A program made the translations under genes and the position numbers. Positions 29,008-34,955 of a stretch of DNA of 64,000 nt are shown in pieces. Under the pieces are notes generated by a model. The model did not search any database, had not been told where the DNA came from, and worked only from the letters and a program-made list of their open reading frames with translations. How positions within the stretch are numbered: position 1 is the stretch's first letter; every line of letters starts with the position of its first letter. Source of the DNA: Halarcobacter sp. (GTDB lineage Bacteria; Campylobacterota; Campylobacteria; Campylobacterales; Arcobacteraceae); the NCBI GenBank assembly GCA_048571215.1, contig CP182352.1, positions 352,001 through 416,000 of the forward strand, in the 5' to 3' direction.

Positions 29008-29571
29008 TTAGTTTAAATCAGAATCTTTCCAGTATTTAGTTCCTTGAATAGTTGCTTGTAAAGCAAGACCATTTTTAGTCATCTTATAAAGTCTAATCCC
29101 TGGTGCAACAGTTATAGCAGCACCAAAGGCTTTACCTTTTTTCCCAGCTTTTGCAGCTGCATCAGCTTGAGCATTTGCTTCCCAACCTTTATTTACAAAA
29201 TTATTAAAGACTTTTTCATTTTCAAATAAAAAAACTGCTCTAAAATCTTTTATTCCTAAACCAAATCCGACACCACCTGATGCCATATTCATATAGATAT
29301 TTTTGCCTGTATTATTATTGTGAGCAACACCTTTTCCACCTTCTGCTGAAAATAATACTAGATTTACGCCAATATTACTAAATACAGCATAACCATAAGA
29401 ATTTTTTAAAATCTCTTTTGCTTTTTTATCATATTTATATAAATCTGATAGAGTATTGTCTCTTATCTGAATTCTCTCTTTTCTTTCTTGTTTGATGGTA
29501 TTACCAGACCAAAATCCTGAAAATAGTATTGTAGCTATTGTCAATATAGATATTAGTTTAAAATATTTCAT
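29008..29571 (-). CDS. Ysc84/SYLF-like lipid-binding exported protein
   Basis: GYAVF, GGKGVA, GVGFGLG, GLALQATIQGTKY. Confidence 0.75.
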   Translation of the reverse strand: MKYFKLISILTIATILFSGFWSGNTIKQERKERIQIRDNTLSDLYKYDKKAKEILKNSYGYAVFSNIGVNLVLFSAEGGKGVAHNNNTGKNIYMNMASGGVGFGLGIKDFRAVFLFENEKVFNNFVNKGWEANAQADAAAKAGKKGKAFGAAITVAPGIRLYKMTKNGLALQATIQGTKYWKDSDLN

Positions 29572-29665
29572 ATCTTATCCTTTCAAAATCATTATATTTG
29601 ATGATACTGTTTCAAGGATATATTATTGCTTTAAATTAAAATATAATTTAGAGTTTAAATAAATT

Positions 29666-29749
29666 TGGTGGGGTGTTCTTACTTGAAGTTGAATCCATAT
29701 AAGAGCTTATGAAGTTATTTTATAAAAAGACCCCTAAATAGTACCCTAA
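29666..29749. repeat. Degenerate att site (outer attR-like) with arm-type direct repeats
   Basis: TGGTGGGGTGTTC..GAAGTTGAAT..AAAGACCCCTAAATAGTACCCTAA aligns with 35167-35252. Confidence 0.65.
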
Positions 29750-29751
29750 GA

Positions 29752-29971
29752 TTAATTTTCTAAATTTTTTTTGATATTTTGAATAATAGTTTTAAATATT
29801 GGTAGATTGTATCTTATTACATCTTCTATAATATTTTCATCTGTACTATCATAGTCATGTGCAATATAATTTCTTACTGAACTAATACCTTTTAAATCTT
29901 CATTTGTAAAGTTCTCTAGTATTTTCAATACATTCTAAAATCTTATCTAATCGATTAATCACTTTAGACGT
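29752..29971 (-). pseudogene. HEPN/DUF86 toxin remnant
   Basis: Reads ...DLKGISSVRNYIAHDYD... (RxxxxH motif); ACG at the expected start, plus a frame break and internal deletion near 29925. Confidence 0.75.
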
Positions 29972-30263
29972 AAACTATGTCCTTCATGATTTTTTTATTT
30001 GTATCAGGTACAAAATCAACTGGTTGTTTGAAAATAGATTGTAGTTCATCTTTTATTGAATCAATTCTAAGAAGTTTAGAAAAACCACCAATATATTTTT
30101 TAGAAAACTTTTCATAATCTAACTTATAAGCAATATCAATATCACTATAGTCTGTGTTAGAATCTTTAGCATAACTACCAAATATTCCAACTATTTCTAA
30201 GCCTTCTTTTTGATATATTGGTTTTAGTTCTTTTAATTTATTTAGTATTTCTTCTTTTCTCAT
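29964..30263 (-). CDS. Minimal nucleotidyltransferase (MNT antitoxin)
   Basis: FGSYAK...SDIDI...VDFV. Confidence 0.88.
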   Translation of the reverse strand: MRKEEILNKLKELKPIYQKEGLEIVGIFGSYAKDSNTDYSDIDIAYKLDYEKFSKKYIGGFSKLLRIDSIKDELQSIFKQPVDFVPDTNKKIMKDIVYV

Positions 30264-30276
30264 AGTTGCTATTATA

Positions 30277-30415
30277 TCATAATTTTGTTTTTATCCATAG
30301 TTCAATTTTTTCCTCTTCCCAAACAGTAACCCTAGGGCTTAATTTTATAGGTTTAGGAAATTTATCTTCCTTAACTCATAACCAAATGGTACTTTTAGCA
30401 AGTGCAGTTTTTTTA
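30277..30415 (-). pseudogene. AlpA-family excisionase/regulator remnant
   Basis: KKTALAKSTIWL*VKEDKFPKPIKLSPRVTVWEEEKIELW with in-frame TGA; paralogous to 35735-35935. Confidence 0.75.
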
Positions 30416-30462
30416 TATCTAATTTTTTTAATAATAAAAAGATAATTTAAATTGTTGGCAGT

Positions 30463-31007
30463 TGTCTTATAGAGCAAAGCTCTCCGCTTTCTCACTTTTT
30501 AGTTGTAAAAAGTAAGACAAAAAGCAACCAGACGGTTGTTGAAGCTAAAGTTCTCTCCAGCTTTATAATTATCTTCTGACCTGCGGGGCTTGATATAAAA
30601 CGTGACATTCAGTCACCTTTTATATCTTCGAACAAGTCCTCGGTCTTTTCCGAAAATAATTAGAAAACTTCCGGCTTCAACAAAGTCTGGACTAAAATAC
30701 TCTAGCCTTGAATTTTTAAAATAGTTATTGAGTATTACACTAGCTTAAATATAATGGTACTAAAAAATGTAAAGGTCAATTTCCCACCTTCCCGCATTTG
30801 AGAAGCCGAGTGTTTATTTGTCTCTTTTGAAAACAAGTGACTAAACTGTTTGAAGCGTAAAGAAACGTTCTGGGAGAACGTTTTAGCAAGTTTTTAGGCA
30901 CTCAAAAGGGATGAATAAAAAGCTCGGAAAGCTTCCGCCTTCGAAACTCTGTGGGTGGTTTTTTTGCTACTTTTTTTTTCACAAAAAAAAGTCGAGAAAG
31001 TTAAGAC
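30463..31007. repeat. Structured non-coding element, copy A (two inverted arms)
   Basis: Homologous to 31067-32872 and 35921-36130; many stems with compensatory changes; bounded by GTCTT...AAGAC. Confidence 0.8.
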
Positions 31008-31536
31008 GTACAGTAAAAGTTTATTTATACTCAAATATTTTGATAATAGTTCTTATTGTATGCATCTGTCTTGTAGAACAAAGTTCTCCGCTTTCTCACT
31101 TTTTAATTGTAAAAAGTAAGGCAAAAAGCAACCAGACGGTTGTCGAAGCTAAAGTTCCCTCCCACTTCACTTTTTAAAGCTAGCCTGCAAAACTCCTCGA
31201 AAAAGTGACATCTAGTCACTTTTCTCTCGTCAGACAGTTTCGGCTTTTTCCGCTTTAAAAAGCAAAGCACTCGGCTTCAACAAAGTCTGGACTAAATACA
31301 CTAGCCACGAACTTTCTCTTAGTAATTGAGTATCACAGTAATTTTGAATGTAATGGTATAAAAAAATGCAAACATCCTTATCCCTTTCCAACATCTGCAA
31401 GAACTGGAGATTTATGAAATGTTTACGGTGAAAAGTGAGGAATGTGTGAGCGTAAAAAAAGAGTGACTAACTCACTCTTTTAGCGAGTTGCCACCTTAAA
31501 AGAATATAAAAATTCCATATAAAATTTATAATAAAA

Positions 31537-32508
31537 TTAAATTTTTTCTGAATCATATGGTACATTATTTTTATATACGGCATGAGCAATAACTAATAGT
31601 TTTCTCATAATTGCTACTTGTATAACTGTAGTATGTTTTCCATTTTCTTTTAGTCTATCATAAAACTTTCTTAATCTTTCGTTATTTCTTATTGATGTCA
31701 TTGCTGGCATAAACAAAGTACCTCTACATATTTTTGAACCTGCTTTTGATATTTTTGTTTTTCCATTAACTGATATACCTGAACTTTTTTCTATTGGATC
31801 TAATCCTGCTAAAGATACTATCTGTTTTTGATTAGCATTTTTATATTGAATAAAATGTATAAGTAATACAATTGAAGATATTTCTCCTATACCATCAATT
31901 GTTTGCAAATTATTAAATGATTGTTGAAGTTTCTCATCTTTTTTTATGATTGATTTTATTTTTTTGATAATTTTTTGTTCTTGTTTTTTTAAAAATTGAT
32001 ATTGTAATTCAAACTCTTTTATCAAATAGCTTTTATCTTTTTTTGCTTTTAAAGCAGCTATATGGTTTTTAGTTATAACTTGTTGTTTAATAATTAATTT
32101 ATATCCAGAAATAAGCTCTTTTAATTCTTCTTCTATGGTATCTACAATAGGTATTTTAATATCTTTATCTTTAGCTGTAACAATCATTTTAGATAAAAGC
32201 TGTGCATCTTTTATATCATTTTTATTTCTATATCCCATTACTTTTGCAAAGCTAGCACTTTTTTTAGGATTTACTATAAAGCTTTTTATATTTTTGTTTG
32301 CACAAAACTGTTTTAAAAGAAATGAATAATTAGCTGTTGGTTCATAAACAAATACTAATTTATCTATCTCTTTTTTATAAAGCTTTTTTAGTTTAGAGTA
32401 CAAACTTTTTATTCCATTTAAACTATTATCAATAATTAAATCTAAATCATTTATTGGAATATAAACATTAATTGTTGACTTACTTACATCTAATCCGATA
32501 GAATACAT
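31537..32508 (-). CDS. IS110 DEDD recombinase/transposase
   Basis: IGLDVSK, YEPT, KNDIKDA, TIDGIG, AGLDP..KSSG, AIMRKL. Confidence 0.93.
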   Translation of the reverse strand: MYSIGLDVSKSTINVYIPINDLDLIIDNSLNGIKSLYSKLKKLYKKEIDKLVFVYEPTANYSFLLKQFCANKNIKSFIVNPKKSASFAKVMGYRNKNDIKDAQLLSKMIVTAKDKDIKIPIVDTIEEELKELISGYKLIIKQQVITKNHIAALKAKKDKSYLIKEFELQYQFLKKQEQKIIKKIKSIIKKDEKLQQSFNNLQTIDGIGEISSIVLLIHFIQYKNANQKQIVSLAGLDPIEKSSGISVNGKTKISKAGSKICRGTLFMPAMTSIRNNERLRKFYDRLKENGKHTTVIQVAIMRKLLVIAHAVYKNNVPYDSEKI

Positions 32509-32574
32509 TTCTAGAACCTTTATTTTAGGATAAAGAGTTCGTTAGGGTAGGATTTCTCCTACCTGATAATTGTT

Positions 32575-32760
32575 ATACAAACTTTAGACTTATAAAATAC
32601 GAACTAGTTATAAAACTGTTCTTGTTGCCACTCAAATTTAAAGTATAACTATCAAACTCGCCATCAAGCTAATTATAAATTATTTTTTATAATTGCTTTA
32701 GTTCCGCAACGATATATTATCTTTCAAACTCTTTGGAAATATATTAACTATATTCCCTTA
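32575..32760 (-). ncRNA. IS110 bridge RNA (ends approximate)
   Basis: Two stem-flanked internal loops whose guides match the target (32700-32711, 32655-32661) and donor (32624-32631, 32588-32594); TATAAT on the minus strand at 32766-32771. Confidence 0.8.
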
Positions 32761-33137
32761 AATGTATTATATAAGTTCCGCAACGTAGTAAATATTTTAT
32801 AAATCGGAAGGCACCTTTAGGTTCTGAAGCCGTTGTGGCTTTTTTGCTTCTTTTTTACCACCAAAAAAGATGATATTATAGAAAAGAGGAAAAGGTGATT
32901 GTCCCCTTTTACTCACTCAATTATTTTATAAATAGAATTGTACTTTTAAGAAAAGGTACCTTTTATCTTTTATCTGTCCTATTTTATCTATCTTAAATTA
33001 TAAAAGTGGAGACTCATCCGCAGGGGTTTTACTTTGGGTGTTACTTTAAAACTATATAATATTTTATAATGGTTTTAATTGTTTTTATTCTTATAAAAGA
33101 TAAAATAAGAGTAATTTTAAATAATAAAGAGAGATAT

Positions 33138-34955
33138 ATGAAGTTACAATTTTTAAAACCTTATCCTAATTCATCTATTACAGAAAAATTTGAAGATATT
33201 GAAATTAATGATTTTGCCATTATAACAGGTAAAAATGGAGTAGGAAAAACTCACTTACTAGAAGCAATTGTACATAATGATAATTATATAAATATAGATG
33301 GTGGTGTAAATGCAATATATTTTAATTATAATGATTTTGTTGTTGAAAACACTTCATCTAATCAGCAAAAAAATAAATCACAATTAAAGAAAAAAAACAG
33401 TAATGCACATAATATAAATCAAGAGTTACAAAATGTAAAAAATAGAATTAGTCAATCTATACGTACACCATTAATAAATGCTTTTCGTGAAAATAATCAA
33501 TTAATTAATCAAGTTTACTCTTATATTTTAAATAGAGTTGAGTTTTTAAATATTCCTTCATTTGATGAATTTCAAAGTAACTTAATAAGGTATACAAATG
33601 ATATTGAGCTTTTAAATAGTATATATACTCTTTTAAATCAATCAGTTGATGATTTTTCTAAAACAAAAGATAAAAAGTTTAATTTTTATTATAAAAAAGC
33701 AAATAGTTTAAATTTATCTATTCAACAAATAAATAATACTCATTTAGAATATAAAGAAACTTGGCTTGGACAACTTTTAGAGAATGAATTTAAAGGTTAT
33801 ATAAAAGCCTTTGACAAAGCTCAAAGAAAAATTATTAGGAATAGTTCTAAAAACATAACGCAAGCAGAAATTGAAGAAAGAATAATAAAAGAGGTTGGAG
33901 TAGCACCTTGGATTATGCTAAATGAAATATTAGAAATGTATAGTTGTAATGGTTATATTATAGATAGAGATCTTGCATATGGCATAGAAACTTACCAAAA
34001 TATAGACCAACAACCATTAAATATAGTATTGAAAAATTATAAAATTGATAGAACAATTAATTTAGATAGATTATCGTCAGGAGAGAAAACTTTATTTGCA
34101 CTTGCAGTAGCACTATATCGTCAAGAGAAGGACAAAAATTTACCAACAGTATTACTTCTAGATGAAATTGATAGTTCTTTACATCCTTCTATGTGTAGGC
34201 AACTTTTAGATGTTTTAGAAAATGTGTTTGTAAAGAAACATAATTTAAAGATTATTATGGTGACTCATTCTCCTTCAACAGTTGCATTAGCCCCTGATGA
34301 TTCAGTATATGTATTAGAAAATAATAATGGAAAAATTAATTTAGAAAATAAAAATAAAGATGAAGCTATCAAGTTCTTGTCAGATGGTTTTGCTACATTT
34401 AATGATGGACTTTTATTTTTAGATAGACTATTAAATAATGATAAAAAAATATCAATTTTAACAGAAGGTAAGAACACTTTATATATAGAAAAAGCTATAT
34501 CTTTACTTGCTCCTGAAATATCAAATGATATAGAAGTTATAAAGGGAGCAGAATCAAAAAGTGGAAAAACTCAGTTGAAAACTTTGTTTGATTTCATTTC
34601 AAAAATTAAACATAACCAGACAATATTTTTTATTTGGGATGGCGATTGTAGTGAATATACAAAATTAGAAGAAGAAAATAATATTATACCTTTTATTTTT
34701 GAAAAAAATAATGATAATGAAATTTCAAAAAAAGGTATTGAAAATCTTTTTAGAGAAGAATTATTTGAAGGTTTTTATACTGAAATAAAGAAATCAGATG
34801 GAATTATATATAAAACATTCGAAGAAAATAGAAAAAATGATTTTTTTAATTTAATTGAAGAAAGAAATCAAAAAGATGATTTTGAAAAGTTTAAGCCTTT
34901 AGTTCAAATACTAACTGATAAAATAAAAGGAGATTCTAAATTAAAAAATCAATAA
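33138..34955 (+). CDS. ABC-type ATPase fused to a C-terminal TOPRIM-like domain (OLD-like, probable defence protein)
   Basis: GKNGVGKT, LSSGEK, LLLDEID, VTHSP, then LTEGK, WDGD, GIENLF; start taken as ATG 33138. Confidence 0.75.
   Translation: MKLQFLKPYPNSSITEKFEDIEINDFAIITGKNGVGKTHLLEAIVHNDNYINIDGGVNAIYFNYNDFVVENTSSNQQKNKSQLKKKNSNAHNINQELQNVKNRISQSIRTPLINAFRENNQLINQVYSYILNRVEFLNIPSFDEFQSNLIRYTNDIELLNSIYTLLNQSVDDFSKTKDKKFNFYYKKANSLNLSIQQINNTHLEYKETWLGQLLENEFKGYIKAFDKAQRKIIRNSSKNITQAEIEERIIKEVGVAPWIMLNEILEMYSCNGYIIDRDLAYGIETYQNIDQQPLNIVLKNYKIDRTINLDRLSSGEKTLFALAVALYRQEKDKNLPTVLLLDEIDSSLHPSMCRQLLDVLENVFVKKHNLKIIMVTHSPSTVALAPDDSVYVLENNNGKINLENKNKDEAIKFLSDGFATFNDGLLFLDRLLNNDKKISILTEGKNTLYIEKAISLLAPEISNDIEVIKGAESKSGKTQLKTLFDFISKIKHNQTIFFIWDGDCSEYTKLEEENNIIPFIFEKNNDNEISKKGIENLFREELFEGFYTEIKKSDGIIYKTFEENRKNDFFNLIEERNQKDDFEKFKPLVQILTDKIKGDSKLKNQ

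Follow-up and report, generated by a model that had tools for sequence, protein, structure and literature searches.

The window, the whole 64,000-nucleotide stretch of Halarcobacter sp. DNA that was analysed, holds an insertion sequence of the IS110 group on its minus strand (Table 1). The element has a left end of 265 nt, a recombinase gene and a right end of 49 nt, as judged from comparison of copies with empty sites. Three copies of this element, A, are present in the 3.6-Mb genome, their recombinases 99.4 to 100% identical in amino acid sequence, together with four copies of a sister, element B, which is 63% identical to A. All three A copies sit in the same position of a host repeat with differing flanks. 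Empty sites for both A and B are found in the genome, and one core restores the empty site. In public DNA contigs, too, shared sequence stops at the ends of the element. Long terminal repeats are absent; a short core is found at both junctions. Membership of the IS1111 group, where the RNA lies in a long right end and subterminal repeats are 7 to 17 bp, was ruled out: the right end here is too short and the guides lie in the left.

Table 1. Features of element copy A1 and its flanks, in window coordinates.
Feature	Positions	Strand	Remarks
IS110-group element, copy A1	31486..32773	-	1288 bp including one CT core; copy and empty-site comparison, public DNA contigs
Right end	31488..31536	-	49 nt; final 7 nt form the left donor arm; sequence, copy comparison
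IS110 recombinase ORF	31537..32508	-	323 aa; D7, E56, D98, D101, S243
-10 hexamer	32766..32771	-	start of left end, beside junction; read from sequence
CT core, left (target/left-end) junction	32774..32775	-	
CT core, right (right-end/target) junction	31486..31487	-	
Left target, 7 nt + core	32774..32782	-	inside host ~280-bp repeat
Right target, +1 to +5	31481..31485	-	against RTG: 3 Watson-Crick, 1 G-T wobble, 1 Watson-Crick
Left target guide (LTG), 9 nt including core	32700..32708	-	family covariation
C-G-U linker	32709..32711	-	equivalent of IS621 C47-G48-U49; not guide
Right target guide (RTG), 5 nt + core	32657..32663	-	family covariation
Left donor guide (LDG), 7 nt + core C	32624..32631	-	family covariation
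Right donor guide (RDG), core + 4 nt	32589..32594	-	family covariation
Target-loop handshake guide	32655..32656	-	reads donor positions 6-7; family covariation; defined as in PMC11208158
Donor-loop handshake guide	32587..32588	-	reads target positions 6-7; family covariation
5' hairpin of left-end RNA	32735..32757	-	predicted fold
Outer stem P1, 5' strand	32726..32732	-	pairs with 32534-32540; 97.9% of cells paired, 1 shared tree change
Target-loop stem, 5' strand	32711..32720	-	flipped-out A 32715, equivalent of IS621 A43
'Up', distal part of target-loop stem 5' strand	32716..32721	-	
Target-loop inner hairpin	32666..32698	-	bulged A (A67 equivalent), then G72 equivalent
Shared 11-nt strand	32639..32649	-	predicted to close target-loop stem (with 32716-32720) or donor-loop stem (with 32572-32578)
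Donor-loop inner hairpin	32601..32621	-	bulged A (A150 equivalent)
'Dn', partner of shared strand	32572..32578	-	RNAalifold, pairing counts
'Dn2', alternative partner of 'Up'	32565..32570	-	would nest donor loop in three-way junction
3' hairpin of extension	32546..32563	-	strongly co-varying (RNAalifold)
Shine-Dalgarno (SD) hairpin	32514..32540	-	predicted to sequester SD-like AAGG 32517-32520; 5' strand is also P1 3' strand

The recombinase carries the Pfam domains DEDD_Tnp_IS110 (PF01548) and Transposase_20 (PF02371), scores 172.6 bits against NCBIfam NF033542 (cut-off 140) and has IS621 and ISCro4 (9t56) as its closest PDB matches; over 328 columns it is 30% identical to IS621. Judged by alignment, the catalytic residues of both the RuvC-like DEDD domain and the C-terminal Tnp domain, with its catalytic serine, are intact, the four acidic residues being invariant in 41 of 41 homologues and the serine present in 40 (one has a stop). 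Pfam, NCBIfam and the IS621 alignment all bear out the original prediction, made from the letters of the window, that this is an IS110 bridge recombinase. It had also called the protein compact. The length it gave is exact, but ordinary for the branch (326 aa in IS621; 315-330 aa in PMC11187229).

Beside the junction lies the -10 box that had been foreseen there, a hexamer read at 32771-32766. No sigma70-type -35 partner for it was found in a two-hexamer promoter scan, which returned no site at the junction and 8 sites against 10.7 in shuffles. Campylobacterota promoters often do without a -35 hexamer. The joint of right end to left end, which a circular intermediate would have, was not found among the contigs of four public runs, and such contigs drop rare forms. 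An Rfam scan of 29500-33100 gave a sole match at E 0.71, far under its gathering score.

The insertion sites of A and B alike lie in a family of intergenic repeats of about 280 bp, which has around 50 long copies and makes up 0.6% of the genome. The repeat has a GC content of 37% versus 28.5%, contains several internal hairpins and comes in two subtypes. There are about 15 clusters genome-wide (examples are G000:C1:957300-971579, 1704702-1721675 and 2821436-2828420); within the window repeats occupy 30465-31490 and 32770-32925. The clusters lie among variable genes, which look co-oriented within a cluster, and adjacent repeat units are in opposite orientation in 34 of 35 cases. From their sequence the arrays could be described as BIME/REPIN-like or cassette-array-like. 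We found neither an Rfam match nor a publication for the ~280-bp repeat, and no REP-type transposase beside it was evident among 114 ORFs near the arrays, inspected by eye at their N-termini only. A fragment of a third IS110 element, encoding the C-terminal 52 aa at 48% identity (G000:C1:1715216-1715377), adjoins a repeat cluster. In the window an 88-aa ORF (30911-31177, plus strand) lies wholly inside the repeat array and is probably spurious. The neighbouring genes encode a small nucleotidyltransferase (Polbeta/NTP_transf_2; 29964-30263, minus strand) and an AAA_21 ATPase of AbiEii type (33069-34955, plus strand), whose similarities suggest a defence or toxin-antitoxin island.

At the heart of the locus are the guides. 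The original prediction had placed four motifs in the left end, and all are exactly where it put them: 32700-32711, identical to 32774-32785; 32655-32661; 32624-32631, identical to 31487-31494; and 32588-32594. The hairpins it described at 32667-32698 and 32601-32621 are present too. To gauge chance, the left end minus its first 30 nt was shuffled 20,000 times with dinucleotide composition kept. The left 12-mer match never arose, the left 9-mer arose in 0.015% of shuffles, the LDG 8-mer in 0.035% and the RTG 7-mer in 0.8%; the RDG 7-mer, at 10.6%, is weak alone. Three of the four matches never occurred together. The left 12-mer itself has just four occurrences in the genome, namely the three guide copies and the junction in the window.

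Relatives offered a far richer source of evidence. Among 121 related genomes, a homologue search found 21 with a match at E 1e-40 or better; a further 30 loci came from genome scans and 58 from metagenome scans, and 10 regions were fetched. Of 92 full-length matches, 19 had no readable left end, and the other 73 yielded 51 distinct left ends. Once elements without a right end, and one with a donor-like left flank (L051), were dropped, there remained 43 guide groups with 61 sites, all from Campylobacterota relatives. Most boundaries in this set come from end-motif patterns rather than from empty sites. The left target was scored in the best of three registers, for real and permuted pairs alike.

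Guides and sites agree position by position. Right target positions +1 to +5 match at 0.88-0.98 (0.40-0.66 when permuted; here and below, related elements count as independent in the permutation tests, so that significance is overstated), and the match falls to chance level at +6. On the left, positions -6 to -1 match at 0.67-0.80 against 0.38-0.50, position -7 at 0.52 against 0.42, and positions -10 to -8 at 0.19-0.40 against 0.24-0.28. The variable donor positions of LD and RD reach 0.98-1.0 (permuted, 0.53-0.91). The target-loop handshake matches donor position 6 at 0.77 versus 0.43; the donor-loop handshake matches target position 7 at 0.59 versus 0.42 and target position 6 at just 0.45 versus 0.37; crossed handshake controls are at or under chance. 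In the clade of the window element the right-target match is loose, with 1-4 of 6 positions exact. At the level of sequence, then, covariation with the DNA extends to left and right target guides, to donor guides and to the handshake bases across 43 guide sets and 61 sites. This covariation, with the predicted fold, upholds the order foreseen for the RNA, an LTG/RTG target loop followed by an LDG/RDG donor loop; and over A, B and the family sites the guides fit their own sites, as they should if other copies sit where their guides direct them.

Some members of the family stand apart. The left flank of L051 ends in 13 nt identical to its own right end, which may mark insertion at a donor-like site of the kind known from 'half-match' recombination, or be an assembly artefact. 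Outside the repeat-targeting branch, most sites (L046, L066, L068, L073, L087 and many non-Arcobacter loci) have a right target G(A/T)CCC, by its sequence a candidate second target class shared among them.

Could the matches be something other than guides? They might be copied remnants of the target and of the element ends, with no guiding role. What such a reading has in its favour is that the RNA is predicted from sequence and that the right-side match is loose in the clade of the window element. Position-specific covariation in four segments and in the handshake bases, over 43 guide groups, makes it very improbable. Slightly less remote, though still improbable, is the arrangement inferred in the original prediction, an extended left guide of up to 12 nt with a 4-nt core. 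All 12 positions do match at the window copy, and there only; the summed family match at -10 to -8 is slightly over permutation (0.95 versus 0.77, equalled in 4.8% of permutations). Against this, one guide has inserted at six sites that match 3, 3, 0, 1, 2 and 0 of these three positions, and the three extra bases form a fixed linker. In IS621 the linker C47-G48-U49 precedes a 9-nt LTG, and its G is protein-bound (PMC11208158); a natural IS621 copy (L129) has CGT directly before its 9-nt LTG. Since the extra CGT is a fixed linker in the RNA and variable at the sites, the left guide is the ordinary one of 9 nt.

Nor does the 4-nt core stand. Both junctions have AACT in common at two of the three A copies, and the same holds for 11 of 61 family sites. 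In one A copy the left core is preceded by GA instead of AA, which leaves CT as the shared core. The prediction was right that the core contains CT, which is found at 61/61 right and 51/61 left junctions of the family (the other 10 left junctions have a non-CT core). The AA in front of it is handshake positions 6-7: in the IS621 structure, the two bases before the core are read by the handshake guides after top-strand exchange (PMC11208158). That the handshake guides read positions 6-7 of the other DNA also explains the match of the RTG to an AA from the donor and of the RDG to a base from the target. Sister B adds a twist. Its LDG is kept; its LTG, RTG and RDG have changed together with its sites. 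The left junction reads TT and the right one CT in all four B copies; TT also stands at empty B sites, and the B guides follow suit, the LTG ending in TT and the RTG reading CT. In these copies (L124-L127; G000:C1:1467773, 1706091, 2521627 and 2826742) a TT target core has recombined with a CT donor core; top strands cut after position 9 would give just such junctions.

We therefore put at about 0.88 the probability that this IS110-group element is intact, has moved recently and encodes in its left end a bridge RNA of the IS621 type, with guides reading target and donor. By homology with IS621, the recombinase would bind the two RNA loops, transcribed from the -10 site or by read-through (PMC13626964), formation of the ribonucleoprotein being surmised from IS621 and relatives. 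The 9-nt LTG and 7-nt RTG would read the target, a position in the host repeat, and the LDG and RDG the joined element ends; the top strands would be cleaved after the CT core and would change places, and the incoming strand would pair through its positions 6-7 with the two handshake dinucleotides. Whether IS110 elements exit by cut-out or copy-out is disputed in the literature (for example, 10.1101/2025.10.25.684509).

The guides do not account for everything about target choice. Of 64 reconstructed family sites, 31 lie in the repeat, at about six positions and on either strand; the others lie elsewhere. A scan of the genome with the 14-mer predicted from the guides gave four near-matches in repeats and seven outside, and with so loose a right target the guides alone do not fully explain why insertion is confined to repeats. 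The near-matches outside repeats suggest that target structure may add specificity for A, as has been reported for ISPpu10 (10.64898/2026.03.19.712850).

What kind of RNA carries these guides? Of the 51 left ends, 41 went into an RNAalifold run, five near-duplicates and five with a long donor hairpin being left out. The consensus contains both inner hairpins, short loop-closing stems, the outer stem and the 3' hairpin, with two-sided changes at 31 of 48 pairs. The eight protein-bound A/G landmarks defined in IS621 as flipped A or syn-G (PMC11208158), namely A43/G48/A67/G72/A116/G121/A150/G155, are kept in 36-41 of the 41 (the linker G in 36). From the proximal stem of the target loop (TBL) to the flipped A of the donor loop (DBL) there are only 10-11 nt in all 41 homologues, 11 in the window element. 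Past the donor stem there is a 3' extension of 60-79 nt, and on this model the bridge RNA would run about 60 nt beyond 32575, to about 32514. Two branches depart from the common plan. In one (L079, L082, L012, L015, L016, L034, L063, L064), the 5' hairpin is lost and the -10 hexamer, with a TG motif, has moved further inside the left end; in the other (L097, L089, L098, L052, L084), the donor-loop inner hairpin is ~28 nt longer.

In so tight a space, one strand has two potential partners. The Up:shared stem is paired in 91.7% of cases, with two-sided change at 4/5 pairs and 5 shared changes on the recombinase tree; for shared:Dn the figures are 95.5%, 5/7 pairs and 14 shared changes. The SD hairpin (93.2% paired, two-sided change at 4/9 pairs, 10 shared changes) has two pairs that switch between GC and AU in 10 and 19 of the 41. 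Changes in P1 are mostly one-sided. With the register chosen per sequence, Up:Dn2 forms at least 4 bp in 37/41 (mean 5.5, against 3.8 permuted). Mean duplex energies are -8.0 kcal/mol for shared:Dn and -4.4 kcal/mol for Up:shared. Each of the four duplexes is stronger than those with non-cognate partners, which is not so for the cross controls, and in one branch (L071/L093/L094/L095) all four strands, Up, shared, Dn and Dn2, change in step. Single sequences are less eloquent. The window left end folds with z = -1.98, 9 of 200 shuffles doing as well. When the 51 left ends are folded without constraint, the mean unpaired probability of the four guides is 0.44-0.50, and Up:Dn2 exceeds 3 expected pairs in just 4/51 ensembles. 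In these models the naked RNA, on folding, fails to keep its guides open, which counts against our best explanation; the predicted fold of IS621 likewise pairs parts of its guides.

With the guides forced open and helices enforced, a calculation in which gaps of 2 kcal/mol fall inside the error of the model, the window RNA has energies of -55.3 kcal/mol for TBL+SD and -54.7 for DBL+P1, the other two combinations coming at -52.8 and -52.5. A compromise in which both stems are shortened was tried and rejected (-43.9/-47.1 kcal/mol in the window RNA; at least 2.6 kcal/mol worse in 41/41 homologues, median 6.9). The likeliest full-length fold would nest the donor loop in a three-way junction formed by shared:Dn and Up:Dn2. 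Up:shared pairing would instead make the canonical target-loop stem that a target-loop-only RNA would need, and the SD hairpin is predicted to dampen translation of the recombinase.

One may imagine, then, a clade of Campylobacterota bridge RNAs in which target and donor loops share a strand as a bistable switch coupled to the SD hairpin, so that one transcript chooses between target-loop guide, nested two-loop guide and translatable mRNA, a form of autoregulation. Up:shared with the SD hairpin would be the target-loop RNA with translation off, and shared:Dn with Up:Dn2 and P1 the two-loop RNA with the ribosome site open; binding of recombinase, or processing, would feed back on its own synthesis and set the ratio of target-only to full-length RNA. 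The near-equal window energies speak for such a switch, as do those of 41 homologues, in which the two stem states are within 3 kcal/mol in 26 and SD versus P1 in 29, coupling favouring TBL+SD and DBL+P1 in 31 against 4 with the opposite sign (median -2.2 kcal/mol). So do the four duplexes that outdo non-cognate partners where cross controls fail. Precedent exists for its parts: target-loop-only RNAs dominate in CazIS110-1 (90.4%; 10.1101/2025.10.25.684509) and ISEc21 (PMC11187229), and in ISPpu9 translation of tnp is held down by structure in the 5' UTR (PMC12288879). Yet the energies come from enforced folds and lie within model error, and P1, with its single shared tree change, co-varies weakly. 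We hold a working switch to be possible but doubtful. A single static fold, with the donor loop nested in the three-way junction plus either the SD hairpin or P1, deserves more credence, if short of an even chance; the alternative complementarities would be relics of internal duplication or by-products of AT-rich sequence. Shared:Dn is far better supported than Up:shared in shared changes, is the stronger duplex and is what RNAalifold picks, and the P1 changes are mostly one-sided. The static reading fits less well with Up:shared having two-sided changes at 4/5 pairs and sitting exactly where IS621 and IS622 have the target-loop stem with its flipped A, or with the branch in which all four strands change in step, not expected of independent helices. 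If stems and ribosome-site hairpin did work as a switch, this would give a concrete, testable answer to how target-loop-only and full-length RNAs arise from one transcript, and to how a shared RNA/mRNA transcript limits recombinase synthesis.

How does this compare with what is known? The closest yardstick is IS621 of E. coli (PMC11208160, PMC11208158; copy L129). Both have a DEDD and serine recombinase of the same size, an RNA in a long left end with TBL then DBL, a 9-nt LTG after a C-G-U linker, an LDG of 7 nt plus core C, a CT core, handshake dinucleotides, all eight A/G landmarks and a host intergenic repeat as target. Protein identity, however, is 30%. The 11 nt between TBL proximal stem and DBL flipped A are 26 nt in IS621, and the loops here are joined by an 11-nt strand with overlapping stems, where IS621 has stem, linker and stem. 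In IS621 the DBL stem abuts the ATG; here the 3' extension (hairpin, P1 and SD hairpin) runs into the mRNA leader. The right-target match here is a natural 5 nt, and no ATA/TAT subterminal inverted repeat was seen by eye at the element ends, a 2-3-bp repeat flanking the donor having been described for the IS110 group (PMC11208160). ISCro4/IS622 (10.1101/2025.05.14.653916; PDB 9t56) has the same fold class, 14-bp target and donor, and a flipped A in the TBL stem, but its 11-nt linker is unpaired and its 12-bp TBL and 3+4-bp DBL stems are separate; split loops work in that system (10.1101/2025.05.14.653916). The narrow IS621/IS622 scaffold, with separate stems, an unpaired linker and an RNA ending at the DBL stem, is thus not what we find. 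By eye, an Acinetobacter IS110 left end (L130) has separate stems and no shared strand.

Other branches of the family resemble our element in different ways. In CazIS110-1 and the seekRNA of ISEc21, the left-end RNA is transcribed together with the mRNA and processed, species with only the target loop predominate, and relatives are naturally retargeted, as here (10.1101/2025.10.25.684509, PMC11187229); the text available for these reports mentions neither overlapping stems nor a ribosome-site switch. ISPpu9 and ISPpu10 also target repeated intergenic sequences (PMC12288879, 10.64898/2026.03.19.712850), with ISPpu9 controlled by antisense sRNAs (PMC12288879) and the helix pair proposed here internal to the bridge-RNA leader. 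A recent survey built 86 bridge-RNA models, many deviating from IS621 (10.64898/2026.10.21.760802), and the overlapping-stem scaffold may already be among them. Our search of the text of the literature turned up no paper on this Campylobacterota clade or on overlapping loop stems, though published surveys report many deviating scaffolds; nor did it yield one on Arcobacter IS110 repeat insertion, bridge-RNA three-way junctions or IS110 left-end SD hairpins. In the part of the PMC11208160 supplement files that was searched, Arcobacter, Sulfurimonas, Halarcobacter and Sulfurovum had 0 matches and Campylobacter one unrelated-looking row.

For those who wish to reprogram such systems, an AT-rich orthologue family at 30% identity with fully readable guides is a natural retargeting library. 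Its 43 guide sets, the six positions it occupies in a single host repeat and the TT/CT sister should be useful for deriving pairing rules. A word of warning: an overlapping-stem scaffold could not be split or trimmed by IS621 rules. As a class, the IS110 bridge RNA is already described; what sets this one apart, as far as its sequence tells, is the strand shared between its loops and a 3' extension ending in an SD hairpin.
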